This document shows, piece by piece, positions 1,651 through 56,090 of a DNA stretch of 64,000 nt. This stretch comes from an uncultured Pseudomonadales bacterium (GTDB lineage: Bacteria > Patescibacteriota > Microgenomatia > UBA1400 > PJMF01). The notes under the pieces are model-generated. The model was not told where the DNA came from, made no database searches, and saw only the letters and a program-made list of their open reading frames with translations. How positions within the stretch are numbered: the stretch's first letter is position 1; every line of letters starts with the position of its first letter. The stretch covers positions 62 through 64,061 of the forward strand of contig CAZBEW010000002.1 in the NCBI GenBank assembly GCA_964491115.1, written 5' to 3'. A program made the translations under genes and the position numbers.

Positions 1651-1896
1651 ATGCAAAAACAGTGTAAAATTGTGCTAATGAGAATCACTGTTAATGTTCA
1701 CCCCAACTCCAAGAGAGCAAGAATAGAAAAAGACCTGCTAGGAACATTACATGTTTATGTCAGTCAACCACCTTTGGAAGGAAAAGCTAACAAAGCTGTC
1801 ATCGAGGCCTTAGCCAAGCATTTTAAGACCAAAAAAAGCAGCATTTATCTAATATCTGGCATGAAATCAAAGATTAAAGTTTTTGAGATAGGGTAA
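1651..1896 (+). CDS. YggU/DUF167 family small protein
   Basis: Translation ...ITVNVHPNSKRARIEKD...LHVYVSQPPLEGKANKAVIEALAKHF...IYLISGMKSKIKVFEI matches the conserved DUF167 (UPF0235) pattern V-x-V-x-P-N-x-K...KANxAlixxLAK. The true start may be the internal Met at ~1678. Confidence 0.55.
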   Translation: MQKQCKIVLMRITVNVHPNSKRARIEKDLLGTLHVYVSQPPLEGKANKAVIEALAKHFKTKKSSIYLISGMKSKIKVFEIG

Positions 1897-1921
1897 AGCT
1901 AAGCGTGGATCTTACTGCACC

Positions 1922-2176
1922 TTGCTTGTAATGGTATTTATTGCTAGCTATAATGATTATATGCGAGATAATATCTTCCAGCTGCAACGAACTATTGCGG
2001 AAAAACTACTTGATTTACTTGAAGACGAGCTGATTAGTATTGAGCGCGCAGCTGAAATAGCCACAGAGGTGTTGAATATTGTTGGTGAGGATGCTGCAGA
2101 ATCTGCTCTAAGCGATATCAAACAACAGTTGGCAGTAATTCCTGAATTAAAAACTTTGAATGTACTAAATTTCTAA
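1922..2176 (+). CDS. hypothetical protein
   Basis: 84-aa ORF immediately upstream of the giant ORF; acidic, helical, no motif recognised. Confidence 0.3.
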   Translation: MLVMVFIASYNDYMRDNIFQLQRTIAEKLLDLLEDELISIERAAEIATEVLNIVGEDAAESALSDIKQQLAVIPELKTLNVLNF

Positions 2177-2195
2177 GGATTTTGAGAGTTGACCC

Positions 2196-5100
2196 ATGGA
2201 AAAACAAACAGAAACCCAAACTCCGATTGCAGAAGCGGCAACAAATCCAATCGCAGAAACCCAAACTCCGATCACAGAGGCGGCAGCAACTCCTCAGTCT
2301 GATATAGAAGAGCAGCCTAATATAAAAGAAGCTCAAGCTGAGTCAGAAAATGCAGCTTCATTGGAAAAATTAAAGCGTTGGTTTGGTATTTTGCGTCAAG
2401 TTTGTCAAGAAGATCCGCGAGTGGTGCTACAAGCTTTGCAAAAACCAGAAAAACTAATATTAAGGTCTCCAGATGATGTTATGGCGAAGCGAGCAGAAGA
2501 GTTGCGGAGCACTGTTGATCAGGAAAAGACAAGAAAAGAATTCAGTCAAAAAGGAGTAGATCCTGAAAAAGCCCTAACTGTGATTAATTTTTTAAGAAAA
2601 AATGCGAGTCAAAGCTATTGGCCAACAGACAGATCTGGCTCACCGGATTATGATAAAGAGATAGAGGCTCATTATCAATATAATGCAGAAGCTGATTTTG
2701 AATTTATTAGTGAATTAGCGAATATTAGTGATGATCCAGCGGCCTTACTTGAAGATTTAAATAATATTTTTCCTTTTAAAAATATTGAATACAATAAAAA
2801 TAATACGCTTGAATATGCAAAATTTGTGGCAGATAATCCTCGGGTTCGTGAAGTCATTAATAAGATTAGAGTATTACCAAATCTGAGCAAATTACATAAG
2901 ACTGATGATCTAGTGTTTTCTCGTGACGAAAGTGGTCAAACTCAAGTGAGTATTTATGAAAATGTCTCTGGTAACAATGTATTTTCTCCTGATCCATTGC
3001 AAGATTTAGCAAATTTAGACGAGCAAAGTTTTCAAGAATTACTCTCAGAAGAAAATCTTGTTCGAGTTCAAGAATTATGGGCAAGACTTGCTGGTAAAGA
3101 GGCAATTAAGTTGGAGCTATTACCAAATTTATTGCAATTAGCTCACAATCCTCAACTGGAAACATTATTTGTGCAAGTGATTAAAGCAAATACCAATAAT
3201 TCTTCAGTAGAACAAGCTTTTGCAAGTCAAATTTTAGCTGACTCCAATGAGGTGAGTAGATTTATTTGGACAGTTTCAAGAGCAGAGCAAATTCTTCAAG
3301 AAATTCCAGAGACGGTTACTTTGCTTGATAATGGCTTTGATTTAAATAGCGTTCTTCGCTCCAAATTTAATAGTCATAAAGAAGCAACTGATATTAAGCA
3401 AATTCTTGATCAACAAAATGAGTTGCTCAGCGATTATAACAATCAAGATTTAATGCTCAATGCCAAAATATTGAAAAAATATGGTCTAGAGATGCCTTTA
3501 AGCAATGAATCGAGAGAATATTATAATTTCATGAGAAGCTCTGATCCAGATCGCCTAGAAAAAGCTTTAGAAATTTATGAGGTAACTAAAGATTTTTATA
3601 CCAATGAGACAGACGATGATCTTCGTAAAAACAATGCTAGATTTAGTATTTGGGAAACAATTGACAATAAATTAGCCAACTTTTCTGTAACTGAAGTTAG
3701 CGGTCTTTTTCAATTGTTAGCTGACCAGAAGGGTTTGCTAGGAGATTTTGATCTATATACTTCACAAGTTTTAGAAAACCTTGATTCATTCGAGACCCTT
3801 AAAGAACGCTTTCAGGCTTTGGCTGACCCAAAAATTCAAGAGATGATTAATGACCAATTATTTAACCAGACATTAAAGGCGCATATGGGCGTTGAGAGCG
3901 TTGGTCATAGTTGGCAAAGATGGCAAGTTTTTTTTCAAGCGCCCGATACTTACCAGGATTTATATAGACAAAAAGATTTGTTTTATCAAAGAATGAATGA
4001 TTTAAATAATGAAAAATTATCATTTGCCCTAGATTCAAAGAGCCTTCATTATATACTTCAACTATCAGAAGCAGATTACTTAGATTTTAAAAATACTTGT
4101 CTTACTGATGCTCCACACAACATCGTTAACGAGACCCTTGTGAACAATTATGATTTGTTAAAAACAATGAACCCCGCTGATCAAGAATATTTATTAAACG
4201 AACTCAGATCTTTAGGTATTAAGGCTGATAGTCTCTTTGAGTTTAATCTTGCTGATTCCAATCTTTATCTTAATTTAAGTGAAAAAGATCGTCAGCAGGT
4301 ATTTATTTTAGTTAAAAAATATCAGAATTATGTAGATGATGTTTTAAAAATCCAAAGTAATTTTTTTCTCCAAAACAACAAATTACAGTTAAATTTTTTT
4401 AGTGAGCTAGCCCTTAATCCAGATTCTCAAGATCGTTTTTTTGCATTACTTGATTATTTAAATAAAAATCCCGCCTTGCTTATTTTCAATCCTCTAAGTC
4501 AGGAGAGCAACTATAATGCTAATTATTTTGTAGATTTTCTTGTGACTCGTTTAAGTGAAGGAACTTTTTCTCTCAATGAGTACATAAATCAAGATGGAAC
4601 TATCACTGAGAAATTTTTAGAAAGTGAAGTATTTCAAGAGTCGTTTCAAAAAGCTTATGGTTTCCAGCTAACTGGTGATTTTATTGGAAAATTGAGTCAA
4701 TTTTATCAAGATCTACACGCTCCAGAATATGCTGCTTTGATTGTTAATCCAGAAGCTTATTGGGAAAGCAATCGTGGTCTAATGATTAGACTAGAACAAA
4801 TTGGCTGGCCAGTTAATAATTTTGACCGATTTCGCAGTCTAGTGCAGAACCCTGAGACTAACGATATCTTAAGTTCGGTAGATGTAAATTTATTAAATTC
4901 TTTATCTAAAAACATTGGCCTTAATCCCAACAACATTTATTATGTTAATAAAAGTTCTCTATATTGGTTAAAATCTAATCTGAATAATAATGAGAAAAGA
5001 ATAAATTTTTTTAAAAAAATTCTTAACGAGAAACCCTCTAGTTTTAAAAGTTGCGTCACTGCGTTTCGCTCAACAGGAGCAGAGAAAATTGATCAAATTG

Positions 5101-6620
5101 TTAACGAGCCGCTGTATTTTGAGAGATTATTAGAGGCAATGCAGGAATTTCGTAATATTACCCCTTCTTTAATTACTAGTTATATTTTAAATCTAAATGA
5201 AGCTGAGAGAGCAGAATATCGAGAAAAAATTGATAACTTTAGACATAATGTGCATCGTAATGTACCAATTATGCCTTTAAGCGAAGGAGTTGGAGGTATA
5301 GATTTTTTAACTGATGCAATTTCGCTGACTTTTCCCAGCACCAATCCAGATGATATTAAGTTTCGTTTAACAGAATTGGAAGATCGGTGTGAAGATGTGG
5401 CCAATTTGAAAATTCGAGAAGAAGGGTATCAGGGAAAAATTGTCTCTAAAGAAAAAGAAGCCGTTCTTAGAGACCCGAATAAGACTATTGATGAAGGATT
5501 AATCAACCTTATCAAAGTCATTTTTGCTGATCAACAAGGAGCTGATTATTTAGCTGGAGGCGGAGATGAGGCTTTCGCTTTTCGAGGTTGGGCAAGATTA
5601 TTAGTGGACGCAGGGGCAACTAATCAAAAAGCTTTGTTTAAAGATAATTTACAAGAGGTTATAGCTTGTAGTCGAGTTTCTTTGGGAAATCAAATTGATG
5701 TTTTTACCGAAAAAATGCTTGGAGATACTTCACAAATAGCTGAAAAAAATACCATTTTAAATAAGGCGAAGGAATTATTTGGCATTTATTATAAGGATAA
5801 TGCTTCCAGTAGTATTGAAAATTTTTTACAGGGTCATCAAGAGCAAGTTAATACATTACTAGCCAAACTAAGTGAAAAGCGCCTGAGTGCTTTAGAAAAG
5901 AATATTGTTAATAATAAAGCCATGAGTGAAGAGGATAGATTGGATTTTAAAGACATCATCAGTGGTCTGAGATTAACAGACACGAACATGAACCAAAAAC
6001 GTCAATTATTAGCTAGGTTGCTGTCTTTTATGACTGAACGAAGCATTTTTGCTGGAGGGGCTGGTTTACGCAAAGTAGTCCAAAATGAAAGAGAGAAAAT
6101 TATTTTAAGAGATAAAGAGGGGCAAGAGATTGATCCTAATTCAGTGGTGACTGCTTATCTCACTAAAAACGCTGCTTCTTTCTTTGCTAAAACAACAGCC
6201 GGATTGTGCACTGCGGGTAATGTTTCTCTTTTTAATCGACCAGATCATTTTCATGTTAATTTAGTTGATGCAGAAGAAATAGTGGTGGGTAATATTCAAG
6301 GTTATCAATATAATTATAATGGTCAGCCGGCACTAATTTTTAGGGGCTTTAACCCTTCCACCAGCATCATTTCTTCAACTAATGCTTGGATTTTGTGTGA
6401 CCAAATGCTTGATATAATTAAACAAATTGCACAGGACAACAATATCACCCAGGTTTTTATTCCAGATGACAATGGCTTTCATCCATTAACAAATCGAGTT
6501 GCTGAGGGAGTAGGTCAGTATTTTACACATAAATTTTTTAGAAGAGAAAATCAGGCTTTCTTTTCTTTTGATATCACTCATGACAATATAGTTGATAATT
6601 TCTATAGAATTCCGGTTTAA
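2196..6620 (+). CDS. giant hypothetical protein (1474 aa), cytoplasmic, N/Q/E/L-rich
   Basis: Single uninterrupted ORF; SD-like gagttgacccATG context. Acidic T/P/E-rich repetitive N-terminus (TETQTPIAEAATNPIAETQTPITEAAATP). No TM or signal peptide, no catalytic motif I can name. Confidence 0.7.
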   Translation: MEKQTETQTPIAEAATNPIAETQTPITEAAATPQSDIEEQPNIKEAQAESENAASLEKLKRWFGILRQVCQEDPRVVLQALQKPEKLILRSPDDVMAKRAEELRSTVDQEKTRKEFSQKGVDPEKALTVINFLRKNASQSYWPTDRSGSPDYDKEIEAHYQYNAEADFEFISELANISDDPAALLEDLNNIFPFKNIEYNKNNTLEYAKFVADNPRVREVINKIRVLPNLSKLHKTDDLVFSRDESGQTQVSIYENVSGNNVFSPDPLQDLANLDEQSFQELLSEENLVRVQELWARLAGKEAIKLELLPNLLQLAHNPQLETLFVQVIKANTNNSSVEQAFASQILADSNEVSRFIWTVSRAEQILQEIPETVTLLDNGFDLNSVLRSKFNSHKEATDIKQILDQQNELLSDYNNQDLMLNAKILKKYGLEMPLSNESREYYNFMRSSDPDRLEKALEIYEVTKDFYTNETDDDLRKNNARFSIWETIDNKLANFSVTEVSGLFQLLADQKGLLGDFDLYTSQVLENLDSFETLKERFQALADPKIQEMINDQLFNQTLKAHMGVESVGHSWQRWQVFFQAPDTYQDLYRQKDLFYQRMNDLNNEKLSFALDSKSLHYILQLSEADYLDFKNTCLTDAPHNIVNETLVNNYDLLKTMNPADQEYLLNELRSLGIKADSLFEFNLADSNLYLNLSEKDRQQVFILVKKYQNYVDDVLKIQSNFFLQNNKLQLNFFSELALNPDSQDRFFALLDYLNKNPALLIFNPLSQESNYNANYFVDFLVTRLSEGTFSLNEYINQDGTITEKFLESEVFQESFQKAYGFQLTGDFIGKLSQFYQDLHAPEYAALIVNPEAYWESNRGLMIRLEQIGWPVNNFDRFRSLVQNPETNDILSSVDVNLLNSLSKNIGLNPNNIYYVNKSSLYWLKSNLNNNEKRINFFKKILNEKPSSFKSCVTAFRSTGAEKIDQIVNEPLYFERLLEAMQEFRNITPSLITSYILNLNEAERAEYREKIDNFRHNVHRNVPIMPLSEGVGGIDFLTDAISLTFPSTNPDDIKFRLTELEDRCEDVANLKIREEGYQGKIVSKEKEAVLRDPNKTIDEGLINLIKVIFADQQGADYLAGGGDEAFAFRGWARLLVDAGATNQKALFKDNLQEVIACSRVSLGNQIDVFTEKMLGDTSQIAEKNTILNKAKELFGIYYKDNASSSIENFLQGHQEQVNTLLAKLSEKRLSALEKNIVNNKAMSEEDRLDFKDIISGLRLTDTNMNQKRQLLARLLSFMTERSIFAGGAGLRKVVQNEREKIILRDKEGQEIDPNSVVTAYLTKNAASFFAKTTAGLCTAGNVSLFNRPDHFHVNLVDAEEIVVGNIQGYQYNYNGQPALIFRGFNPSTSIISSTNAWILCDQMLDIIKQIAQDNNITQVFIPDDNGFHPLTNRVAEGVGQYFTHKFFRRENQAFFSFDITHDNIVDNFYRIPV

Positions 6621-6707
6621 TATTTATTAGCTAAAGCTTTGTGCAAAAAGTGATCAAATAGAGGAGTTGGGAGAATTTTGTAGTAGTCAAATTAATGAAA
6701 TAAAGAT

Positions 6708-6742
6708 TTGTCACAATCCCAAAAAATATATTACTGTATAAT
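6708..6742 (+). promoter_or_regulatory. putative sigma70-like promoter for the MazG-like/DUF2075 operon
   Basis: ttgtca (6708-6713) and consensus tataat (6737-6742, preceded by tg) just upstream of SD gaggt and ATG 6751. The -35/-10 spacing of 23 nt is long, so only the -10 element is convincing. Confidence 0.3.
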
Positions 6743-6750
6743 CAGAGGTA

Positions 6751-7098
6751 ATGTCAAAAATTGAAAAACTTACTCAAAAATTAATTGATTTTCGTGAAGC
6801 TCGCAATTGGAAACAATTCCATAACCCAAAAAATTTAGCAGAATCAATTTCTATAGAAGCAAACGAGCTACTAGAACACTTTCAGTGGTTGAATCTAGAA
6901 GAAAGTCAAAAATATAGTGTGGAGCATAAACAAGAATTAGCAGAAGAAATATCTGACGTTCTGAATTATCTAATTTTATTAGCTCATGACATAGACATTG
7001 ATTTAATTGAAGCTGCAATTAAAAAAATAGAAATAAATAATAAGAAATATCCAATAAAAAAGTCAAAAGGCATAAGCACAAAATATAATAAATTATAG
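6751..7098 (+). CDS. MazG-like nucleoside triphosphate pyrophosphohydrolase (all-alpha NTP-PPase)
   Basis: LIDFREARNWKQFHNPKNLAESISIEANELLEHFQW...EEISDVLNYLILLA is the typical MazG/YpjD-like signature (FHxPxNLAxxIxxEAxELLE, E-rich helix). Strong SD, and a 9-nt gap to the next gene. Confidence 0.7.
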   Translation: MSKIEKLTQKLIDFREARNWKQFHNPKNLAESISIEANELLEHFQWLNLEESQKYSVEHKQELAEEISDVLNYLILLAHDIDIDLIEAAIKKIEINNKKYPIKKSKGISTKYNKL

Positions 7099-7107
7099 AA
7101 TTACAAA

Positions 7108-8970
7108 ATGCTTGTTTATAAAAATACAGCTACTGGATTTTGCTACGACGTTGAGACTAATAAGATAGCTGACAGCATAGAATTAGCTTTCAAAAACAGT
7201 CTTGGTCGAAAAGTAAATCCTAGTGAAAAAAGTGCTTGGATAAACTCCATGTCATTTATGGAAAGAATAGTTCGTAATTCTGGAGTGGCTCAAGACTGTG
7301 GGGTTTTAATAGAATATAATATTCCAGCTACTTCTAAAAGAATAGATTTCATAATTGCTGGTTGTGATAGTGAAAACAAAAAAAAATTTGTTATTGTTGA
7401 ACTTAAACAATGGCAGCTAGCGAATAGCACTTTTAAAGATGGCCTTGTAACTAGTTTTTTTAGAGGTGGCGAAAGAGAAACTCCACATCCGTCTTATCAA
7501 GCATATTCTTACAAAAGTTTCTTAAAAGACTATAACGAGAATATTTATAGCGGTAAAATTAATCCCTATTCGTGTGCATATTTACACAATTATAAGGAAA
7601 AACACCCAGAGCCTCTAAAAGCTGATGCGTATAAAGAATACGTAGCTGATTCTCCAATTTACTTTCAAGATGACTTCGAAAAATTAGCAAACTTTATAAA
7701 AATGCATGTTGGTAATGGCGGTGGTGAAGAAATTCTTTATGACATAGAATCGGGGAGAATTAGGCCTAGTAAAAGATTAATTGACTGTGTAAGCGCAATG
7801 TTTAAAGGCAATCAAGAATTTATTCTCTTGGATGAACAAAAGGTTGCCTACGAAACAGCTCTTCATAGTGCTATCAATAGTAAAGAAAAAACTGTAATTA
7901 TTGTTAAAGGTGGTCCTGGTACTGGCAAATCAGTTGTTTCAATGAATTTATTTGGAGGATTACTCGCTAAACAGTTAAACACAGTTTTTGTAGCACCCAA
8001 TGCTGCTTTTAGAAGTGTGATGAAACATAAATTAGCTGGAGAGGAAAGGAAAGAGAAATTAAATCATTTGTTTAAAGGTTCGGCAGCTTTCTACGGGTTA
8101 AAAGATAACGTTTATGATGCAATTGTTGTTGATGAAGCACATCGTTTAAAAAATTATAAAGCTTACCAATATTTTGGACAAAATCAAATTGAAGATATTG
8201 TGAAGGCTGGTAAAACTAGTATTTTTTTTGTTGACGAAAATCAAATTATTCGTCCAGAAGACATAGGCTCGATTGAAGAAATTAAAAAAATAGCCAATCA
8301 ACAATATGCAACAATTAATGAAATAGAACTACAGGCTCAATTTAGATGTTCTGGTTCAGACGGATATATAAATTGGTTAGATAATACTTTAAGAATTAAA
8401 GAAACAGCAAATTTTGATGGTTGGGAAGACAAAAACTTTGAATTTCTTATTTTTGATGATCCGAATGATTTAAGGCAAGCTATTAAGAATAAACAAAATC
8501 AGGGGTTTGATGCTCAATTGCTAGCAGGATACGCTTGGAAATGGACAAGTGCAAAAGATGGCAATTATGATTCTCAGAGTGAAGATGTTCAGATACCTGA
8601 ATATAACTTTAGTATGCCTTGGAATTCAAGAAAAACTGGGTCAAATTGGGCAATTGATGCAAATAGCCACGAACAAATTGGTTGTGTACATACAAGTCAA
8701 GGTTTAGAATTTGACTATGTGGGTGTAATCGTTGGTAATGATCTGCGCTTTGATAAAGAAAAATTTGAGTATTTTGTTCCTTGGGACTCTTATAAGGATA
8801 TGGCTGGAAAAAAGGGTTTAAAAGATGAACCAGAAAAGCTATGTTTATTAGTAAAAAATATTTATAAAATTTTAATGACTAGAGGTATTTACGGTTGCTA
8901 TGTTTTTTTTCAAGACAAAAATTTGAAAGAGTTTGTTGAAAGTAGGTTGAAAAATGATTTATACAGGTAA
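7108..8970 (+). CDS. DUF2075-like nuclease-ATPase: N-terminal PD-(D/E)xK-like domain + Schlafen/helicase-like P-loop NTPase
   Basis: N-terminal region ...KRIDFIIAG...KFVIVELKQW has a D...ExK nuclease motif. Walker A GGPGTGKSVV, Walker B/DEAH-like VVDEAHRL, and a C-terminal region typical of DUF2075 proteins. Confidence 0.7.
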   Translation: MLVYKNTATGFCYDVETNKIADSIELAFKNSLGRKVNPSEKSAWINSMSFMERIVRNSGVAQDCGVLIEYNIPATSKRIDFIIAGCDSENKKKFVIVELKQWQLANSTFKDGLVTSFFRGGERETPHPSYQAYSYKSFLKDYNENIYSGKINPYSCAYLHNYKEKHPEPLKADAYKEYVADSPIYFQDDFEKLANFIKMHVGNGGGEEILYDIESGRIRPSKRLIDCVSAMFKGNQEFILLDEQKVAYETALHSAINSKEKTVIIVKGGPGTGKSVVSMNLFGGLLAKQLNTVFVAPNAAFRSVMKHKLAGEERKEKLNHLFKGSAAFYGLKDNVYDAIVVDEAHRLKNYKAYQYFGQNQIEDIVKAGKTSIFFVDENQIIRPEDIGSIEEIKKIANQQYATINEIELQAQFRCSGSDGYINWLDNTLRIKETANFDGWEDKNFEFLIFDDPNDLRQAIKNKQNQGFDAQLLAGYAWKWTSAKDGNYDSQSEDVQIPEYNFSMPWNSRKTGSNWAIDANSHEQIGCVHTSQGLEFDYVGVIVGNDLRFDKEKFEYFVPWDSYKDMAGKKGLKDEPEKLCLLVKNIYKILMTRGIYGCYVFFQDKNLKEFVESRLKNDLYR

Positions 8971-8974
8971 TTTC

Positions 8975-9160
8975 TTATTCTTTTAGTAATTTAGATTCAT
9001 TGGTGAATCTGTTAATTGAGATTTTTTTGAGAATCTTTTGACCTTGTTTGGTGTCAAAATCGATGATTTCTAATTTTTGTTTTTTATTAATAAAGCGAAA
9101 TTGACGTAATTTTAAATCTACAGTATATTTCTCAAAAGTTGGAAGTTTTATTATGGCCAT
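8975..9160 (-). CDS. small hypothetical protein (61 aa), possible swapped-hairpin (AbrB/MazE-like) DNA-binding regulator
   Basis: ORF divergent from the methyltransferase gene, with its start abutting a perfect 10-bp inverted repeat. The segment LEIIDFDTKQGQKILKK loosely resembles AbrB-type beta-hairpin DNA binders. This call is weak. Confidence 0.3.
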   Translation of the reverse strand: MAIIKLPTFEKYTVDLKLRQFRFINKKQKLEIIDFDTKQGQKILKKISINRFTNESKLLKE

Positions 9161-9189
9161 TGTAACTATTTTTTAAAACAATAGTTACA
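9161..9189. promoter_or_regulatory. perfect inverted repeat tgtaactatt-N9-aatagttaca (operator-like) between small ORF and M gene
   Basis: Read directly: tgtaactatt (9161-9170) and aatagttaca (9180-9189). Further TGTAA/GTTACA half-site copies follow at ~9196-9260 in the M-gene promoter region. Confidence 0.45.
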
Positions 9190-9296
9190 TTTGTTGTTAC
9201 AAATTAAAAGAATTACTTGCTGCATTTAATGTAAACTTATTGTAAGATTTGTATGTTTAAATAAACTAACATATAAACTTAAAAATTTTTGAGAAA

Positions 9297-10256
9297 ATGA
9301 CACAAAAAAAATATCGCACAATAGACCTATTTGCAGGCATGGGAGGCATTCGAATTGGTTTTGAGAAAGTTGGATTTGAGACTGTTTTTGCTAATGATTT
9401 TGATCATGATTGTAAAATTACCTATGATTTAAATTTTAATAAAACAAAGCTTCTTGTTCAGGATATAAGATCAATTCCAACCTCAAGCTTTCCCGATTTT
9501 GATTATATGTTGGCTGGATTTCCGTGCCAACCTTTTTCAGTTGCTGGTTACAGGCAAGGATTTTCCGATCTGCAGGGTAGAGGCAATTTGTTTTTTTATA
9601 TGGCAAGAATAATTCAAAACAGAAAACCAGCGGGCTTTCTACTGGAAAATGTTAAAAATTTAGAAGGTCACGATGGTGGTAAAACTTTTAGGATAATTAC
9701 AAAAACATTAGAAAATTTAGGCTATCACATTCAAACAAAAGTATTAAACACGATGGAATACGGTAATTTGCCACAAAATAGGGAAAGAATTTATATTGTT
9801 GGTTTTAATAATAAACAGACTTCTCATAACTTTAAATTTCCAGAAAAAATTAATCTTAAAATAAAAACTCAAGATTTGTTAGAGAAGGAAGTTCATGAAA
9901 AATATTACTACAATAATAAACCTTTATTTCCTAGAATTAAAGATTCTATTACTAGAGAAGATACCTTATATCAATGGAGACGTAAATATATTCGTGAAAA
10001 TAAAAAAGGAGTTTGTCCAACTTTAACAGCAAATATGGGTACTGGTGGACACAACGTGCCAATTATAAAACAAGGAAAAATAATAAGAAAATTAACACCA
10101 CGTGAGTGTGCAAGGTTTCAAGGTTTTCCAGACTCCTATATATTGCCAGAGATTGCTGATAGCAAGTTGTACAAGCAGATTGGGAATTCAGTCTCAATAC
10201 CGGTCATTAAAAGAATTGCTAGGAATATGAAACTGGCTATTGATAGCGGGTCATAA
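9297..10256 (+). CDS. DNA (cytosine-5)-methyltransferase, type II
   Basis: Motif I DLFAGMGGIRIGF, motif IV GFPCQPFSVAG, motif VI ENVKNL, C-terminal QIGNSVSIPV. This is canonical Dcm/C5-MTase. Confidence 0.9.
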   Translation: MTQKKYRTIDLFAGMGGIRIGFEKVGFETVFANDFDHDCKITYDLNFNKTKLLVQDIRSIPTSSFPDFDYMLAGFPCQPFSVAGYRQGFSDLQGRGNLFFYMARIIQNRKPAGFLLENVKNLEGHDGGKTFRIITKTLENLGYHIQTKVLNTMEYGNLPQNRERIYIVGFNNKQTSHNFKFPEKINLKIKTQDLLEKEVHEKYYYNNKPLFPRIKDSITREDTLYQWRRKYIRENKKGVCPTLTANMGTGGHNVPIIKQGKIIRKLTPRECARFQGFPDSYILPEIADSKLYKQIGNSVSIPVIKRIARNMKLAIDSGS

Positions 10257-10257
10257 G

Positions 10258-11070
10258 TTATTTGTTAAAAAACTTATTAAGTTCTTTCTCAATATGATAT
10301 TCAATTTGATCATTGTCAACAATGTCTCTCAACTTAATTGTTGCAGGATATAAATTGTTAAAACCCCATGTGATTAGAAAATTGTTATCTTGTAATTCTT
10401 TGGCATATAACCTCAGTTCCATTCTCTTTTTACTTTTATATATTTTAACGTTGCCAAGAGCGCTATCAATATAATTGTTCACAAAAACTGATGTAGAAGA
10501 TGACTTTTTTATAGTTAATGTATTAATAGCTTCTTGATTTATTTTAGCGATTGATAAATGAATGTTGTTGCCAGCTCTGATAAAAATAAAATAGAATATT
10601 TTTTTTAAATTAAAATCTAAAAGTGGTTGTTTTAATTTTTCTAGCAAAATTTTTTGCCAACCTACTAGAATTTTTTCATACTCTTGATTTTCAAATGCCT
10701 GATCTAGTGTTTTTCCAAATCCCTTGAAATTTTGTCCCAACGAAGTTTCATTGGTTTGGGAACTAATTAAGTTGCCCTGTTTATCCACTTTTGCTGAGAC
10801 AAATTTAACATCCACTCCATAATCATTAATTTTAAAAGCATCAATTGGATAATTGCCCGATCCTATTGGCTCTAAATCACAGCCCTGGACTATCCATTGT
10901 TCTAAAAATTCCTTAGTTATTTGAATGTCATTATTTTTTTTATTTATGGTTAGAGATTCTGGTTGAGAAAACGCTACCTTTTTTAATAAATAGTTAATAA
11001 CCTTGTAGGCCTTATGATCTATCAATTCAAGCATTTCTTTTTTAGATAAAAAATCCATTACATAAATCAT
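10258..11070 (-). CDS. putative type II restriction endonuclease (cognate of adjacent C5-MTase)
   Basis: Tail-to-tail with the MTase (stops 1 nt apart). Contains a PD-(D/E)xK-like motif YPIDAFKINDYGVDVKFVSAK (PID...DVK). Very AT-rich. No family-level identification is possible from sequence alone. Confidence 0.5.
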   Translation of the reverse strand: MIYVMDFLSKKEMLELIDHKAYKVINYLLKKVAFSQPESLTINKKNNDIQITKEFLEQWIVQGCDLEPIGSGNYPIDAFKINDYGVDVKFVSAKVDKQGNLISSQTNETSLGQNFKGFGKTLDQAFENQEYEKILVGWQKILLEKLKQPLLDFNLKKIFYFIFIRAGNNIHLSIAKINQEAINTLTIKKSSSTSVFVNNYIDSALGNVKIYKSKKRMELRLYAKELQDNNFLITWGFNNLYPATIKLRDIVDNDQIEYHIEKELNKFFNK

Positions 11071-11196
11071 AAAGCTCCTAAATAGAACCCAAAGTGTTTA
11101 TACTGTATTATAACTCTAATTAATCAAATCGGGTAATTTTTAAACACACTCTTTTTCTTCTAAAGAAGATTGTTAAACTTATTTAACTATAATTTT

Positions 11197-11355
11197 TCAC
11201 CCTCTCTCCCAATCCAATTCATCAATTAAGCTCTCGGCATTGTCTAGTTCGCCTTGGTCGATTAATTCCTCAATTTCAGCACTTTCATCATCCGTCAGCA
11301 ACTCTTCTATATCTCCCAGCCTTGATACCAGCTCATCTTGTCTTTCTACATCCAT
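11197..11355 (-). CDS. small acidic hypothetical protein (52 aa)
   Basis: ATG at 11355 (revcomp) to TGA at 11197; MDVERQDELVSRLGDIEELLTDDESAEIEELIDQGELDNAESLIDELDWERG. Not in the ORF track (<60 aa). Divergent from the DUF2779 gene with a ~22-bp gap. Could be spurious. Confidence 0.25.
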   Translation of the reverse strand: MDVERQDELVSRLGDIEELLTDDESAEIEELIDQGELDNAESLIDELDWERG

Positions 11356-11377
11356 TCTTTAATTATATAATCAAACT

Positions 11378-12880
11378 ATGACCATTTCCAAATCCGACTA
11401 CATGCTTTTTCTGCGCCACCCGGCTTGGTTGTGGCTTAAAAAACACCAGCCCCAGCGCTTGCCCGAAGCCGATGCCAATCTCCAGGCCATTTTTGCCAGT
11501 GGCCAGCAATTTGAGGCTTATGCGGAACAGCTCTTTCTTGGGGCAGTTAAATTGGGTTTTGCTGGTTATGATCAATATTTGCGCTTGCCAGAGAAAACTC
11601 AAGCCTTAATTGACCAGCACACTCCCTGTATTTTGCAGGGGAGGCTAGAAGTTGATGGTTTGACTTGCATTTTTGATGTGTTGGAGCGGGTGGATGAACA
11701 GACTTTTAATTTAATTGAAATAAAATCTGGCACTAAGGTAAAAGATACCCATCTTTACGATTTAGCTTTTCAAAGCTTGATTTTAGAGCGTTTGGGCTGG
11801 CAGGTGGGGGAGATCAGTGTTGTGCATGCTGACAGAGACTATGTGCGCCAAGGGGAAATTGATCCCGAGCAATTATGCAGTCGCAGTGAGATCACTCAAG
11901 AGGTTAAAGCCCTTTTGCCACAAACTAAAGACTTAGTTGAGCTAGCCAAGACTGTGCTCAAACAGCCACAGCCGCCTTCTTTTTCACCTAGTTTAGCCAA
12001 TTTAATTGGGGTAAAAGAGACCAACTGGCTCCAAGAGTGGTTGGCCATTTATTCGCAGCTTCATCCTGATTTAGCTAAATACAATATTTATCAGCTAGCT
12101 GGAGCAAAAGCCGAGCAATTGGGCAAATTAGAGAAGCAGGGGATTCAGCTCTTAGCCGATATTCCTGACGAATTAGCCATAACCACCAAACAAAAGTTGC
12201 AAATCCAGACAACGCGGACTGGCCAACCCTTGATTAATCAGTCGGCAGTTAAGGATTTTTTAGCCAGCTTGCACTATCCTTTATATTTTTTAGATTATGA
12301 AACGATGAATGCCGTCATTCCTTTTTTTGACGGGATGAGGCCTTATCAAGATTATCCTTTTCAGTATTCCTTGCATTTATTAAGGGAGCCTGGCGGCAAA
12401 GTAGAGCATTTTGCCTATTTGCATCAAGCCAAGAGCAATCCTTTGCCAGGATTAATCGCTCAATTAAAGCAAGAATTGGGCGAGCAGGGCAGTATTCTCA
12501 CCTGGAATATGAGCTATGAAAAGGGCTGTCATCAACGCATGGCTGATTTTTATCCAGAGGAGGCGGAGTTTTTTGAGCAAGTTAATGAACGCATCGTGGA
12601 TTTGATGACTGTCTTTAAAAACTTGGATTTTGTCGATCGAGATTTTATGGGCAGTGCTAGTTTGAAATATGTTTTACCCGTTTTAGCTCCCGAATTAAGC
12701 TACGCTGATTTAAATGTTGGCGATGGTTTGTTCGCTAGACGGCTGTGGATAGCCACTATTTTGCTGGGTAAAAATAAGCGGGATAAAGAGGCAATTTTAC
12801 AAGATTTGATGGATTATTGTACTCTAGATACCTACGGCATGGTTCGGATTTTAGAGGTGTTGGAGAAGGTGGCGGAGTGA
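11378..12880 (+). CDS. DUF2779-like protein (N-terminal RecB-like nuclease fold + C-terminal RNase-H-like 3'-5' exonuclease-like domain)
   Basis: N-terminus ISKSDYMLFLRHPAWLWLKK and C-terminal FLDYETMNAVIPFFDGMRPYQDYPFQYSLH match the conserved DUF2779 blocks (YLDFET...PYQxxPFQxSxH). GC is noticeably higher than in neighbouring genes. Confidence 0.6.
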   Translation: MTISKSDYMLFLRHPAWLWLKKHQPQRLPEADANLQAIFASGQQFEAYAEQLFLGAVKLGFAGYDQYLRLPEKTQALIDQHTPCILQGRLEVDGLTCIFDVLERVDEQTFNLIEIKSGTKVKDTHLYDLAFQSLILERLGWQVGEISVVHADRDYVRQGEIDPEQLCSRSEITQEVKALLPQTKDLVELAKTVLKQPQPPSFSPSLANLIGVKETNWLQEWLAIYSQLHPDLAKYNIYQLAGAKAEQLGKLEKQGIQLLADIPDELAITTKQKLQIQTTRTGQPLINQSAVKDFLASLHYPLYFLDYETMNAVIPFFDGMRPYQDYPFQYSLHLLREPGGKVEHFAYLHQAKSNPLPGLIAQLKQELGEQGSILTWNMSYEKGCHQRMADFYPEEAEFFEQVNERIVDLMTVFKNLDFVDRDFMGSASLKYVLPVLAPELSYADLNVGDGLFARRLWIATILLGKNKRDKEAILQDLMDYCTLDTYGMVRILEVLEKVAE

Positions 12881-12965
12881 GAATAAAGAGCTGTGCAAAG
12901 TAGCAACAATCATAGCTAATTTTTTACAATTGTTAGTTTTTGGATAATCGCTTTGCGTTTCTTTT

Positions 12966-13005
12966 TGCAAATTTTAGTTTTCCTATGCAAATTTTAGCTT
13001 TCCTA
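12966..13005. repeat. 20-bp tandem duplication tgcaaattttag(t/c)tttccta x2 in promoter region
   Basis: Read directly; lies ~65 bp upstream of the GTG start at 13071, followed by a tatgctacact -10-like box. Confidence 0.6.
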
Positions 13006-13070
13006 GCACACAAACATAAAGTTATCATAAAGTTTTTCTAAAAACTTGTAATTATGCTACACTAAACTTA

Positions 13071-14009
13071 GTGCCAAAGCCTACACCTGCTCTAGTTATT
13101 CATGCCCTTGTTCTTTCTTTAAGTATTTTAGCTTTTTATGTTTTTTGCTTTGCAGTTGCTGACCGTCAACTGATTTTTCTTTACAATCATATGGGCTATG
13201 GGCCTTTGGCAGACTTTAATATATCTCGACACTGGATGACTGGTTTGGTAGTGGGGGGTTGGCTTTTAATTTCTTATTTACCCATTAATTTAATTCTGCA
13301 GAAAGTATATAAAAAATATCAATTTCCAGATTGGGCAAATTTAAGCTGCTATGTATGTTTATTTTTATCTTTACCTTTATTTTTCTTGCTTAATTTTATT
13401 GTTGAGCCGGTTTTGCCTTTTTTGCTTAATTTAACTATTTTTTTCATTTTATTTTTAAGTGTGCGCCTGGTTTTATATTTAACTCATCTCGCTCTCAAAA
13501 ATTTTAAAGACTTTTTCTGGCTGACGATCGACGCTTGTTCGCTCTTGCCCGTGCTTTTTATTTTGCCGATCTTAACGCAATTTGGTCTTAGGCGCTCTTT
13601 TCCGCTTTTTGGCTTATTTCTTGTCTCACCGCTGGTGATGATGCTGCTGGCTGGCTTGTGCTTTGCTCTGATCACTTGGCTAACTAAGCGGGTTAAACGC
13701 ACTCAGCCTAGCTCTCTACAACTGTTCTTGTCGGCTTTAAGCAGTGCTTATCTATTTGTTCCTTTTGTGCACTATTTTTCGTCAAATCCTGGCGGAACTT
13801 TATATATTAGCAATAGTGATAACTTTTTTGCGAATAATCCGCTTATTCAAATTGCTAGTTATATATTAGTGTTGGTCTTGCTCAAAGTTTTTAGCAAGTG
13901 GCGAGGGCAAGAGAAGAGCGATGATTTTAAAGCCACGCTTAAACTATTTTTGCTTTTACTTGGCTTGGTTTTGTATATTTTTGGCTTGCGCCAGCTTTTA
14001 AGCACTTAA
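13071..14009 (+). CDS. polytopic integral membrane protein, hypothetical
   Basis: GTG start; ~8-9 hydrophobic helices (LVIHALVLSLSILAFYVFCF..., FFLLNFIVEPVLPFLL..., LLGLVLYIFGL). No motif recognised. Confidence 0.55.
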   Translation: MPKPTPALVIHALVLSLSILAFYVFCFAVADRQLIFLYNHMGYGPLADFNISRHWMTGLVVGGWLLISYLPINLILQKVYKKYQFPDWANLSCYVCLFLSLPLFFLLNFIVEPVLPFLLNLTIFFILFLSVRLVLYLTHLALKNFKDFFWLTIDACSLLPVLFILPILTQFGLRRSFPLFGLFLVSPLVMMLLAGLCFALITWLTKRVKRTQPSSLQLFLSALSSAYLFVPFVHYFSSNPGGTLYISNSDNFFANNPLIQIASYILVLVLLKVFSKWRGQEKSDDFKATLKLFLLLLGLVLYIFGLRQLLST

Positions 14010-15028: not shown

Positions 15029-15050
15029 GCATTATTATTGGGATTTTTTC

Positions 15051-16469
15051 CTACTCCATCATTTTTATAAATTCTTCTTCTTTTCCAGCAAAAAATTGTA
15101 GTAAATTGTCTATATGCCATTGGTCATTTTTATTAAAGTACATGTCCTCAGCTAATTGGGGGTCGAGCTTGAAAGTTCTAATAAAACTAAGCCATTTCAT
15201 ACTATGTTTTGTTCCAGCTAAAACAAGTGACATACCAAAAGCATTTGCCCCTTTTTCTCTAAAAGCAGCTTTGGCAGTGTAATAATGAGTAGCAGCCTCA
15301 TCCAATCCTGTTAGAAAGTTGGTGTCTCCACTAAGAATGTGCAAACACTCGTGGTAAACAATTGACCAGAGTACCTGCTCTGTCAATTCTGCTAATAAAT
15401 CTTCTTTTGATTGATTTTTATCATCCACAAACTGCGGATTTATTGCTTCATCGGTGCTGTTGTAAGAATAGGGAATGTATTGAGCTATAAGATTGATCAT
15501 TCCCTGTTGATCGTCTGGTAGAGTAAAATTCTCTCTTTTGATTAAGTGATAAATTTTTATAAATACTGGATTGAGAATCTTTTCCATTATCAATTCTTGA
15601 TTAAATAGAATTAAACCTTGTCTTAAAGTTCTAGCGTAACTTGAATGCTGAACTACCTCATTAGAGTAAGTGTTAGCAAAAGTTTCATAATCATCATTAT
15701 TGAGGAAAAACGCTTGCTTGTTAGTAAGGGTATTAAAAAATATTTGCGATTGCTCACTAGCTTTGGCGAAAAAATCATGAGCTACACAGGCTGAAGCGTC
15801 TTGAAAAATCTTTTGCCTATCTAAGCCAGCAATTTCGGGCATTTCATTGAAATTACTTTGTATCTCATAGGCATAAGAAGCAGTTCGTTCTTTATATGCA
15901 GTATTACTAAAATCATCTTCTAGCTCCTGACCCGTTTCTTCCTGCCCCTTTTCTGTTAATTCACGGAAATATGGTAAAGAGATACTATTTAGACCAAGCA
16001 TGGCTGAATATTGAACATTATTTCCATTAAACTGAAAAATTTTAGGTAAAATTTGTTGGAGTTTTCCAGGATCAACACTGTTAAGCTTTAAACTATCATT
16101 TTTGGCAATTAGAAAATGCTCGGGACTTTTATCTGGTTCTTCAATGGCGATTAAAATGCCATCCTTATTTTTTTCAAAACTGATGCCTCCTACACTTTCA
16201 AAACTGTTGCCATCTTTGGTTTTTCTAACTAAAGGTTTATAAAAACCCATAGGCATACTCTGAAAATTTTTTTCCAGCAGTTGTCTGATAAGGTTGATTT
16301 GTGCAAGCTCAATTAAGCCTTCATTTTCAACAGTAAATAGTTTTGTTTCATCAAGAGGAGGGTAGATGTTTGCTGGATCAAGCGCTTGACGCTCTTGATC
16401 TAGATTGCTTTCCTGCTTAATAACTGTTTGCTCCTTATTTTCTTGTTTTATTTGCATTTCTATAATCAA
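15051..16469 (-). CDS. HExxH-motif protein (putative zinc metallopeptidase-like), hypothetical
   Basis: Contains VYHECLHILSGD (HExxH) near the C-terminus. No TM. Last gene of a minus-strand run behind the giant membrane protein. Confidence 0.5.
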   Translation of the reverse strand: MIIEMQIKQENKEQTVIKQESNLDQERQALDPANIYPPLDETKLFTVENEGLIELAQINLIRQLLEKNFQSMPMGFYKPLVRKTKDGNSFESVGGISFEKNKDGILIAIEEPDKSPEHFLIAKNDSLKLNSVDPGKLQQILPKIFQFNGNNVQYSAMLGLNSISLPYFRELTEKGQEETGQELEDDFSNTAYKERTASYAYEIQSNFNEMPEIAGLDRQKIFQDASACVAHDFFAKASEQSQIFFNTLTNKQAFFLNNDDYETFANTYSNEVVQHSSYARTLRQGLILFNQELIMEKILNPVFIKIYHLIKRENFTLPDDQQGMINLIAQYIPYSYNSTDEAINPQFVDDKNQSKEDLLAELTEQVLWSIVYHECLHILSGDTNFLTGLDEAATHYYTAKAAFREKGANAFGMSLVLAGTKHSMKWLSFIRTFKLDPQLAEDMYFNKNDQWHIDNLLQFFAGKEEEFIKMME

Positions 16470-16565
16470 TCTATTTGATTGGATGACATATTGCTAGCGC
16501 GATCGTATAAATCAACACTAATAAATCAATTCTCGCTATTTTAGCTGATTTTAGCCGACCAAAGA

Positions 16566-19500
16566 TTATTTCTTAAATTTATTCCTTAATTTTTGCACTA
16601 AGAAAATAACTATAGCAATGACAGCAAGGGCAGCTGAAAAGAGCAAGAGTGAACTACTGCTAGCCATGTTACTACCTTCATCCAGACCACCTAGACTATC
16701 CAGACTACCGGTCGTAGGTATGAAGTCACTTTGTGTGCTAGTTTCAAGCATTGTGTTTGAAATACTCATTTCCGCACTCTTCGTTACCCCCAGAAGGCCT
16801 GTTTTTAGCATGGCATTATCTATCATGATCATTGATTTTGGCACCATGCCAAAGTCTGGCCAAATATTCACCGAATTATTTTCATTCATTTCGGCATCTT
16901 GGAAACGACTATATCGTGCCATTTCTCGCTCTAAACTAGCCAATTGTTGTTGGTTAACTAGGGCTAGTAAAGAAGAGTAGGGACTAACTAAATTAGCCTG
17001 GCGTGCAGCCAGATCTAGCTGGTCAAGCTGGTTAATATTGCCCACCACTTCTTGATCTTGGTCTTGAACAAATTTCTTAAGCAGTCCTTTGTTGGCAATT
17101 TTGCCAAAAGCAGTGCTTCCACTAAAGAGATCACTGCTTAAATTACCCGATAAGCCCATGTATTCTAAGCTTAAATTTTGATTGAGATTTAAGGCGTTAT
17201 CCGTAATTTTCTCGGCTAAAGTTTTTTTAATTAAGAAATTTCGCAGCGCACTTTCAATGCTGGTGCTCGCTCCACCGCCAGTTTGCCACAGGCCGCTGGT
17301 CATTTCCATGTTGAGCGCTGGTAATTTTTCTTCACTAACCCAATAGACCATGCTGGGCTTGGAGAAGGGGAAATTCTTTAGTTGCGAGAAATCTATATCT
17401 TGACTGGTGACTAGCACTACCAGATCGTGTTGCGCCTTAATTTCTCCTAATTTACTAAAATCACTAACCTTAGAGAAGTGGATAGGTGCTAATAAATCCT
17501 TGAAGTTTTCGCTAGTGATTTTTTCTCCTTGGCTAACAACTTGATTGAATTTATAGAAATCTAGTTGAGCTTCATTTAACCAATTATTATCGCTTTTGCT
17601 TAAGAAGTCGGCAAATTTATCCAGGGTTTGATCGTCTTGATTGTTCGAGGAGGTATCATAGACGATGGCAATTCGATAATCTTTGAGTAAAGGTAAAAGC
17701 TCTTCAACATTGCCACAGGCAATTTTTTGCAATTCTGGATCATTGGCATGAAAAATCACCCGAGCAGTTCTCCCTGCTTCAACTAGGATATTCATTGTTT
17801 CTTGTTTTTGACATAAGTCTAAAACTTGTTCACTTGCCGCAGGTAACTCATTGAGCTCTTCTTTAAGATAGCTGATTTGCCCATCGTAAGAGAGAGTTAT
17901 TGAGCTTGAACCATCAACGAAAACATTTGATTCTTTGGTGTAGTGAGGCAAGGCAAAAACACCAGCGTTTTGAGCAATACTATAGCTAAAGGACACTTTT
18001 TGTCTTTGCCCTTGCAAAGTATTAAAATCATTATTTCCTGGGATAGGGAAGATTCTTAAACGATATTGATTGGGGCCAGTTTGTTCTAAAAGAGCTGGAT
18101 CGCGGTTTTGTCGTAATTGTTGCTCATAAACTTTTTGTGCAGCACCTTTAGGAGCAACAATGCCGGTAAATTCTAGATTTGGCCCAAGCTTGAGATCGTG
18201 GAAAGCTGCTTCATCTGGCAAATTAAACTCATAAATAATTTCTTGTTCTTGCCTGGTCTGATTTTGGTATTCTTCTTCAATGGTAATATTGGCTAATAAA
18301 CCATTAGCCTCGGTATTAACCGTGATTTCCCGATAAGTGAGCAGGACCTCTTTTTCATTTTCTTCTTCATTTTTATTTTTACTTTGAGAATTTTGCGAAT
18401 AATGAGGATAGCCGAATAAATATTCAAAATTATCTGTGAGAGTGTCTTGGTCTTCCCAGCTTTCCCAATAGACCAGTGGATAAGCTAAATTGGTAAAAGC
18501 AGATTGCAAGACTCGAGCGAAACCTTCATTTTCGAATACAATTCCATAGACGTCGACCAAAATCTCATTATCTTTGTCAAATAAATAATGATTGCGTGTT
18601 CTAATTTTGCGTTTGACGAGTTTTTGTAGTTTTTCTTCTTCATTAATCAGTGAGCTCGCGCTAGTTTCTTGAGTAAGATAATCAGCTTTTTGATCAAATT
18701 CAATCAGTTGAGTAAGTAAGCGATTATCTGGCCAGCGAAACAAACTAAGCAAAAATAAAGTAAAAGCAATCAGCCAGCCAAATGCTACTCGTTTGTCTGC
18801 TTTATGTTGTCCTAAAGATTCGATCAGCTTTTGTCGACTTTTTTCAAAAATTTTCCATAAAGTGCGTAAGCCAAGGAATGGTAGAGTACATGCTCCAAGA
18901 ATTAACAAAAAAATGGCAAAAGCCATACCAAGTTGCAGTGCGTGAGCCGGATAATTAGCAAAAGAGCCATAACTGATGTCGAAAAAAAAGTAGTCTTCTA
19001 AATACATTTTTGGTAAACCAATGACAACTATCGGTAAAAAGAAAGAAAATAATAAGGTGAAATAGGCAAGAAATAAGGTGCTGAATTGACTAAAAAAAGC
19101 CACAACTTTACTAGTTGCAGCTGATAATTCCACTTTAGCAAAGTGCACGTAGAGCAAAGGAGGAAGGCTGAGGAAAGCAATTATGCTTAATGCGGTGAAA
19201 AAAGTGACATAAGCAATTGAACTCGAGAGCCTTAATAAAATGGTAGCTAAAGGTAATTCAAAAAAGAAAAAGAATTTCGTCAAGTTGCCGCTTTGGCGGT
19301 GTAAACCTTTGCGCCAGACATAAATCACCGAGACGATAGGTAATAAGAAAGTGGCCAGAAGAGTCAAGGTTTGTACCCATTCAATATTTTTAATAAGTGA
19401 CATAAAATCTTGATTGATAAACAGTGTTGCAAGCATTGACAGGTTAAAAAAGATGAAATAAATATTGTAGGCCCAAAAAAGGAACTTGCCCAGAAAGCCA

Positions 19501-19835: not shown

Positions 19836-19935
19836 ATATAAATAGTATATTGACTTTAAAAGCAAATAACAAGAATTGTTTAAAAATTGGGAGTTTTTGC
19901 TAAATCGATCAATCTTTTTAGATCGGCAAATCTTT

Positions 19936-56016: not shown

Positions 56017-56090
56017 GGGCCTGTAGCTCAGTTGGCTAGAGCGCTGCATTCGCATTGCAGAGGTCAGGGATTCGACTTCCCTCAGGTCCA
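56017..56090 (+). tRNA. tRNA-Ala (anticodon CGC)
   Basis: Manual fold: acceptor GGGCCTG/CAGGTCC with G3:U70 Ala identity pair, D-arm GCTC-AGTTGGCTA-GAGC, anticodon stem CTGCA/TGCAG with loop ttCGCat, T-arm AGGGA-TTCGACT-TCCCT, discriminator A. CCA is not encoded. Confidence 0.85.

Follow-up and report, generated by a model that had tools for sequence, protein, structure and literature searches.

A likely strain-variable defence slot with two independent gene modules in a genome of the candidate phyla radiation

Defence hotspots, in which one slot between conserved core genes takes up interchangeable AT-rich defence cargo and no dedicated integrase is needed, are well known as a kind, and few defence systems have been reported in the candidate phyla radiation (CPR)/Patescibacteria (PMC12366544). 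Here, we describe a locus in a CPR/Paceibacterota genome of about 0.8 Mb, based on a 64-kb stretch of DNA which is referred to in its whole length as the window. We consider it likely that positions 6643-11189 of this window are the current content of a strain-variable defence slot holding two independent modules, namely an operon for a MazG-like protein and a nuclease-helicase (module A) and a restriction-modification (R-M) unit (module B), and that the adjacent DUF2779 gene merely abuts this slot. What goes beyond a routine hotspot is the CPR host, the mapped borders, the at least six different contents and two undescribed components; a further difference from hotspots of the known kind is that the large gene of the left flank is itself polymorphic.

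For module A, the closest described systems are Nhi of Staphylococcus epidermidis (SERP2475) and Nhi-like (Millman et al. 2022), which have the same architecture and are experimentally proven to be anti-phage. Nhi degrades phage replication intermediates, a phage escapes Nhi-like when the phage DNA methylase is lost, and MazG-like domains have been proposed as effectors targeting deoxynucleoside triphosphates (dNTPs) in another system. Module B has its counterpart in type II R-M systems like that of M.HhaI, and mobile R-M units flanked by short direct repeats have been described in Helicobacter comparisons. The DUF2779 family, to which the gene at the right edge of the slot belongs, is widespread, quasi-essential in JCVI-syn3.0 (PMC13621843) and consists of a Cas4-like nuclease fused to an RNase-H-like exonuclease (PMC13621843, PMC3985635).

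Borders and contents of the variable slot

A first-pass annotation, made from the sequence of this DNA, had read positions 6621-12880 as a defence island and proposed an alignment with closely related genomes as a check. The loci of relatives (named L002 to L008, L095 and L096) were fetched and aligned to the window, borders were mapped from the alignments, and content polymorphism was found with boundaries at 6643-11189. The flanks of this slot show 88-97% nucleotide identity, and at least six different contents occur between them. That of the window comprises the genes of the MazG-like protein and the helicase, a 61-aa open reading frame (ORF), a methyltransferase gene and a 270-aa gene, while L004, a relative of 804 kb, and L005 possess only the MazG-like gene, the helicase gene and the 61-aa ORF. 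L002 and L003 carry an HNH-DEAD helicase and GmrSD, L096 carries a 343-aa gene, type I HsdS/M/R and GmrSD, and L007 and L008 have a DUF5655/NucS-like gene, a 187-aa gene and the remnant of a DUF45-like gene. In L095 the slot is empty, with an 89-aa gene abutting the 52-aa ORF of the right flank. Taken over all versions, the cargo genes are a C5 methyltransferase with a probable endonuclease, GmrSD, type I HsdRMS, an HNH-helicase, a DUF5655/NucS-like gene and a nuclease-helicase of Nhi architecture, so that the idea of a defence island held up in the form of one slot filled mostly with restriction and defence genes in close relatives.

The cleanest comparison is that with L096, where the end of the 1474-aa gene to the left is shared up to position 6642 (96.6% identity) and the DUF2779 side is shared as well (96.8%), the cargo being wholly different. 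As L096 has both flanks in common with the window and yet differs in its cargo, the slot is placed at 6643-11189. On the left side, L004 is homologous to the window from 6638; on the right side, homology with L002, L003, L007, L008, L095 and L096 always begins at 11190-11194. The right flank is formed by the 52-aa ORF, DUF2779, a 312-aa gene and a 321-aa gene, and was found in every relative examined. The island had been drawn to 12880, but the variation stops at about 11190, where the 52-aa ORF has its stop codon, and DUF2779 is found in every relative. At the left edge, a 130-bp promoter spacer had been proposed as the boundary (6621-6750); the spacer does exist and the cargo border at about 6642 lies inside it, and a promoter for the MazG operon is likely there, judging from the element TGTATAAT located directly before the ribosome-binding site and the ATG of the MazG-like gene. 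Clusters built at 90% identity have sizes of 1 (MazG-like protein), 2 (helicase), 2 (methyltransferase) and 1 (270-aa protein) for the cargo, and of 10 (DUF2779), 15 (312-aa membrane protein) and 12 (formyltransferase) for the flank.

The switch from an AT-rich part (about 7.1-11.1 kb) to a GC-rich part (11.2-12.9 kb), pointed out in the first pass, was borne out by measurement. With a GC content of 0.301, the slot is the lowest among all 4.5-kb windows of the 64 kb (mean 0.371, standard deviation 0.020), the core showing 0.380, and the alternative cargos of the relatives are AT-rich too (0.31-0.33). Positions 11190-12880 reach 0.429, which is in the top 0.3% of 1.7-kb windows, and no other gene of the window equals DUF2779 in third-position GC. 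Such a high GC suits a gene that is native and conserved better than a second segment brought in from outside.

Indeed, DUF2779 and the 52-aa ORF are syntenic in every relative whatever the cargo, and owing to their presence in all relatives they are core flank and not cargo. PF11074 covers residues 303-428 of the DUF2779 protein, weak Cas4 matches (7e-6) fall on residues 89-182, and a D-x13-E-I-K motif is visible in the sequence; a sequence search against solved structures returned nothing for this protein. With a PD-(D/E)xK region before the PF11074 domain and with its conservation as a core gene, it resembles the MMSYN1_0389-type DUF2779 fusion, from which it differs by the conserved, divergent and strongly acidic 52-aa ORF that is always found upstream in the relatives of this lineage. 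This ORF displays 92-100% amino acid identity in all relatives, and its changes are mostly synonymous ones at third positions. DUF2779 is thus predicted to encode a core DNA-processing nuclease, and its gene marks the right edge of the slot.

Concerning the way in which the contents are exchanged, the identity between the window and L002 is 98-100% in a stretch of about 300 bp close to the junction (11323-11622) and drops to about 90% farther out. This step indicates a recombination tract and fits an exchange of cargo by homologous recombination in the flanks; likewise, the 52-aa ORF is 100% nucleotide-identical to that of L002 though its flanks are at about 90%, which again speaks for a recombination tract. 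DNA would be taken up, and the content of the slot would then be exchanged by homologous recombination in the conserved flanks. The first-pass annotation had called the insertion mechanism unclear, which was fair, though the data point to such recombination, and it had rightly noted the lack of integrase, transposase and tRNA genes at the borders: domain profile scans found no integrase or transposase domain in the block 6621-12880, and the only tRNAs of the window are at 56017 and 59823, about 45 kb from the block. Compared with an integrative mobile element, the locus therefore has none of these border genes; all that is present is the 10-bp direct repeat bracketing the R-M unit. A motif shared by all variable junctions was considered and rejected, as the left-border element occurs once in the window, and long-range repeats and inverted repeats in 6500-13200 look like AT-rich chance matches.

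If this reading is right, a tiny CPR genome keeps a dedicated, fast-turning slot for immune genes, and its exact borders make the locus usable for harvesting further cargo from metagenomes. An additional observation was made in L007, where the spacer to the left of the cargo (about 1990-2130) contains the C-terminal remnant of a DUF45/YgjP-like metallopeptidase with a HELCH motif. Genes of this type often accompany type I R-M systems, and the remnant may be the scar of an earlier cargo.

The two cargo modules

Module A (6643-9241) is made up of the MazG-like gene and the nuclease-helicase gene, forming an operon. The MazG-like protein matches PDB 4qgp (1.4e-21) and dCTP pyrophosphatase 1 (DCTPP1; 6e-19) and is homologous over its whole 115 aa. 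As in DCTPP1/RS21-C6 and other all-alpha MazG enzymes, the acidic metal-binding residues are kept: in an alignment of the query with 64 matching ORFs (65 sequences), E36, E39, E42, E66 and D69 are conserved in at least 94%. It differs from DCTPP1 in being a minimal protein in an operon with a nuclease-helicase and in occurring in defence-type neighbourhoods.

The 620-aa protein shows an invariant nuclease motif (D80...E98-x-K100, i.e., D80, E98 and K100), an invariant Walker A motif at 268-275 and an invariant DEAH at 342-345, and a weak NERD match was obtained for its N-terminal domain (0.0065). Like Nhi and Nhi-like, it combines an N-terminal PD-(D/E)xK nuclease and a DUF2075 superfamily 1 (SF1) helicase in one polypeptide chain. 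Its structure model matches SLFN11, RecD2, Dna2, Dda and Upf1, including the neighbours Dna2, Dda and Upf1 that were reported for Nhi, and a sequence search against solved structures yielded nothing. In PADLOC, PDC-S41 (1.7e-21) covers only the N-terminal half (residues 3-317), and AbiO (4.8e-14) as well as Nhi (7.2e-14) cover only the helicase region (residues 235-484). Unlike Nhi, the protein thus has no full-length profile match, and neither the MazG-like partner (60 of 80 loci) nor a C-terminal extension (23 of 80) has been described for Nhi. By analogy, it would work like Nhi, and we do not file it as a member of that family; for Nhi-like of Millman et al., the comparison was made by description.

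These counts stem from a survey in which the family alignment was scanned against species-representative genomes and 80 loci were kept, originating from Saccharibacteria, Omnitrophota, Proteobacteria, Bacillota, Bacteroidota, methanogens and others, and in which a MazG-like partner was counted if it was on the same strand and within about 1.3 kb of the helicase gene. The adjoining MazG-like ORF was seen in bacterial and archaeal loci and usually abuts the helicase start; it was absent in 16 of the 80, and at two further loci the contig ends within the upstream DNA. The homologues with an extension (total length at least 740 aa; L010, L013, L030 and others) retain the MazG-like partner in 22 of the 23 cases, and in P0111, the one homologue scanned, the extension proved to be an S24 peptidase domain of the LexA type. 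A Microcystis phage record contains the pair too, and helicase homologues are found on plasmids, in one case (Marivirga) with an annotated nucleotide pyrophosphohydrolase next to it. By raw count, the commonest families among the immediate neighbours at the other loci are Fic, RhuM, ResIII, HNH, AbiEi, Mrr, PLD and NUDIX. The operon is absent from PADLOC, no description of it was found in the literature, and no paper in the library searched joins DUF2075 with MazG or names PDC-S41.

Within this lineage only, the 61-aa ORF and the adjacent hairpin (8975-9189) travel with module A. The ORF is present in L004 to L006 with 92% amino acid identity, and its substitutions are biased towards third positions (3/2/8). 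It was rejected as a third component of module A, as no homologue lies beside DUF2075 genes in the 80 other loci. The inverted repeat, judged by its sequence, may be the terminator of the MazG-helicase operon; a terminator scan gave a signal not above shuffled expectation.

Module B (9242-11183, about 1.9 kb) lies between exact copies of the 10-bp direct repeat TAAACTTATT, of which the L004 site lacking the R-M unit has a single copy at 12125-12134. Window and L004 are collinear over 6638-9245 (94.8%) and again from 11174, and the extra 1.9 kb correspond to the methyltransferase and the 270-aa gene. By chance, two 30-bp junction segments would have a 10-mer in common in about 0.3% of cases. 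The module would have arrived by insertion with target duplication, or it would have been lost elsewhere by deletion between the repeats.

The methyltransferase matches PF00145 over its full length and TIGR00675 (5.5e-98), its FPCQ, ENV and GNSV motifs are visible, and its best solved relative is M.HhaI (2e-59). It is convergent with the 270-aa gene, from which it is separated by 1 bp (a 4-bp overlap in L092), and the same convergent pairing with a C5 methyltransferase was encountered in Methanococcus maripaludis and a metagenome scaffold; L092/L094 are among the loci with convergent pairs. In these pairs, the members of the 270-aa family are 49-52% and the methyltransferases 63-68% identical to those of the window, the target-recognition stretch of the methyltransferases included. 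These comparisons indicate that both genes are inherited as a unit across bacteria (CPR) and archaea.

The 270-aa protein has 104 homologues, all of them unnamed and without a Pfam domain, and no description of the family was found. E57, D77, D87 and E108 are invariant, K89 is present in at least 90%, and in the structure model (pLDDT 92.8) the conserved residues are placed on a helix-strand-strand-strand core as in PD-(D/E)xK enzymes. We regard the protein as a probable type II endonuclease of an uncharacterised family. Compared with M.HhaI-like type II R-M systems, the unit is alike in being a compact convergent pair of a methyltransferase and a probable endonuclease that is present or absent as a whole together with a direct repeat, and it differs in having a probable endonuclease without a Pfam model or a similar solved structure and in not keeping the recognition residues of M.HhaI. 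The best fold match of the 270-aa model, the Eco15I/NhoI N-terminal domain (E 0.03), is non-significant and was not used. The family is a candidate for a new restriction enzyme, and the target of the partner methyltransferase would be directly readable by methylation sequencing.

Some side observations concern the surroundings of this pair. Over the full length of the window, three palindromes are rarer than expected, namely TGCA (observed/expected 0.65, z = -5.8), GGCC (0.73) and AGCT (0.85); GCGC is not depleted. Since the R-M unit is a recent arrival, the depletion of TGCA and GGCC cannot be assigned to its methyltransferase; the depletion of all three words may reflect older or other restriction systems of the lineage. 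A gene for an HhH-GPD glycosylase is located near the 270-aa homologue in Methanococcus (L089 6195-6848) and directly adjoins it in Persephonella (L090 4840-5517). Enzymes of the HhH-GPD type repair T:G mismatches resulting from the deamination of 5-methylcytosine. The methyltransferase paired with the 270-aa homologue in L092 (4819-6402) has an N-terminal LexA helix-turn-helix and an S24 domain, and the S24 domains, shown for one of the extended helicase homologues and for this methyltransferase, hint at a regulation by DNA damage.

Possible functions and alternative explanations

Three published points, i.e., the action of Nhi on replication intermediates, the escape by methylase loss and the MazG-like dNTP effectors, guide the mechanism that we propose for module A. 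The helicase would load on foreign or replicating DNA, the nuclease would degrade this DNA, and the pyrophosphatase would remove dCTP or modified dCTP from the nucleotide pool, which would either deprive phage DNA synthesis of a precursor or prevent the incorporation of modified nucleotides into the host DNA. Taken jointly, and put forward tentatively as a possibility that may well prove wrong in one part or another, the pair could be an undescribed two-gene immune system of bacteria, archaea, plasmids and a phage record, about 29% of its loci having the C-terminal extension, in which a pyrophosphatase depletes or sanitises (modified) dCTP and a Schlafen-like nuclease-helicase destroys invading, possibly modified DNA, the 270-aa protein separately representing a new family of type II endonucleases. 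If the pair is indeed immune, it would link the control of the nucleotide pool to DNA degradation in one system and, its nuclease-helicase being related to human Schlafen helicases, would offer a tractable bacterial model for helicases of this type.

Other explanations have to be weighed against this. That the mosaic is an artefact of assembly or binning might be suspected because all related sequences are metagenome assemblies; it is nonetheless barely conceivable, given that the arrangement of the window recurs at 100% identity in an independent Logan contig spanning both borders and also inside a 129.6-kb NCBI contig, and that the types of L002, L004, L007 and L096 were each recovered from at least two samples. 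According to the first-pass annotation, the MazG-like protein with DUF2075 and the DUF2779 nuclease may cooperate with the R-M system, which would make the whole block 6621-12880 one island with five cooperating products. All products do act on nucleic acids or nucleotides and stand side by side, but every relative has DUF2779 and the 52-aa ORF irrespective of its cargo, nothing links the function of DUF2779 to that cargo, module A occurs in L004 without the R-M unit, the R-M pair occurs without module A in Methanococcus and another metagenome scaffold, and the MazG-helicase pair is found next to unrelated genes in other genomes. The proposed cooperation is contradicted by these separate occurrences, DUF2779 drops out of the island, and we regard a single system as very improbable. 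For module B it could be argued that the 270-aa ORF is not a restriction enzyme and that the methyltransferase is an orphan or regulatory one, considering that the 270-aa protein has no match in Pfam, NCBIfam, PADLOC or PDB sequences and that its Persephonella homologue is beside the HhH-GPD glycosylase and not beside a methyltransferase of its own. This is a rather improbable explanation in view of the tight convergent pairing, co-inherited with the methyltransferase in bacteria and archaea, of the conserved D...D-x-K motif with its upstream helix glutamate, and of the gain or loss of both genes together as one unit.

Module A could also serve in DNA repair or in nucleotide salvage and sanitation, its nuclease-helicase degrading damaged or imported DNA and its DCTPP1-like enzyme clearing modified dCTP, which would be useful to a CPR cell unable to make nucleotides. 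Eukaryotic DCTPP1 has a house-cleaning role, and the homology of the MazG-like protein to it is in line with such a function, as are the high conservation of the 620-aa family across phyla, the structural matches to the repair and replication helicases Dna2 and RecD2, and the C-terminal extensions, of which the one with a LexA-like S24 domain hints at a link to DNA damage. Speaking against it, the distribution is patchy and horizontally transferred, with helicase homologues on plasmids; strains of 90% identity differ in whether they have the module, which swaps with GmrSD and type I R-M at one slot; restriction, Abi and Fic genes prevail among the neighbours in other genomes (counted without a matched control); and proteins of the same architecture are proven to be anti-phage. 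We therefore think that a role in repair or salvage is unlikely.

Several points nevertheless weigh against the reading of both modules as immune systems, for which functions are assigned from sequence, models and gene linkage. The 620-aa family is very large, with about 60% identity across phyla, and thus unusually well conserved for a defence gene. The neighbour count around the 80 loci has no matched control to be set against, and the loci lacking a MazG-like ORF mean that this partner is dispensable. PADLOC has no model for the MazG-like protein, and its Nhi, AbiO and PDC-S41 matches to the 620-aa protein are partial. As regards module B, the junction with its direct repeats fits a gain of the R-M unit as well as a loss and does not tell the direction. 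The nuclease assignment of the 270-aa protein is built on motif, model topology and gene linkage, to be held against its missing database matches and a Foldseek search in which the model found no significant solved structure. Two attempts to read the target of the methyltransferase were rejected, that from M.HhaI because the residues of the recognition loop are not conserved, and that from palindrome avoidance because GCGC is not avoided in the window.

Feature coordinates and neighbouring genes

The features of the block 6621-12880 are compiled in Table 1. The description of this block as a group of genes for nucleic-acid-targeting proteins agrees with the matches to PF12643, PF09848, PF00145 and PF11074 and with the convergent 270-aa ORF. 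No Rfam family was found in positions 1-22000 of the window.

Table 1. Features of positions 6621-12880 of the window
Feature	Position	Strand	Evidence
Spacer with left cargo border (about 6642/6643) and likely promoter of the MazG operon	6621-6750	+	L096/L004 alignments; promoter inferred from sequence
MazG-like all-alpha NTP pyrophosphohydrolase, DCTPP1/RS21-C6 type, 115 aa	6751-7098	+	PF12643 6.6e-16
Nuclease-helicase, 620 aa: N-terminal PD-(D/E)xK/NERD-like domain and DUF2075/Schlafen-group-3 SF1 helicase	7108-8970	+	PF09848 5e-92
Basic ORF of uncertain status, 61 aa	8975-9160	-	no family match
AT-rich inverted repeat TGTAACTATT ... AATAGTTACA, followed by a T-run	9161-9189	.	sequence read; kept in L004
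Left copy of the 10-bp direct repeat TAAACTTATT	9232-9241	.	R-M unit junction
Type II C5 cytosine DNA methyltransferase, 319 aa	9297-10256	+	PF00145 4e-88
Probable restriction endonuclease, 270 aa, unannotated family	10258-11070	-	convergent with methyltransferase
Right copy of the 10-bp direct repeat TAAACTTATT	11174-11183	.	R-M unit junction
Right edge of the variable slot, adjoining the stop codon of the 52-aa ORF	11190-11196	.	start of homology with relatives
Conserved acidic ORF, 52 aa, core flank	11197-11355	-	present in all relatives; no family match
DUF2779 protein, 500 aa, Cas4-like PD-(D/E)xK region and RNase-H-like exonuclease domain; core flank	11378-12880	+	PF11074 5.3e-37

To the right of the block, the spacer 12881-13070 had been taken as the other boundary of the island on account of a repeat. 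The repeat is there, a 20-bp tandem duplication at 12966-13005; however, it does not lie at the border, as a second, independent indel site was found between DUF2779 and the 312-aa gene (window 12878-13000). At this site, L004 (13831-17207) has a 3.4-kb insertion with a GC content of 0.296 and two genes, encoding a 405-aa protein and a 631-aa membrane protein.

The left neighbour of the slot, predicted to be a large surface-type gene, is polymorphic. The window (1894-6637) and L096 have the 1474-aa gene on the plus strand, in L004 (2950-9533), L002 and L007 its place is taken by an unrelated 1506-aa gene of the minus strand, and L095 (745-1130) has neither. Pfam revealed no domain in either of the two giant proteins, and a scan of the species-representative genomes with the 1474-aa protein found nothing. 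The 1474-aa gene is specific to the lineage and varies within it.

Indels make a patchwork of the entire neighbourhood. A 472-aa gene (15032-16505, minus strand) is absent from L002 and L007 and is 46% identical to its counterpart in L004, and a 1099-aa VIT/PEP-CTERM-like membrane gene (16555-19934) is absent from L004 and L095.

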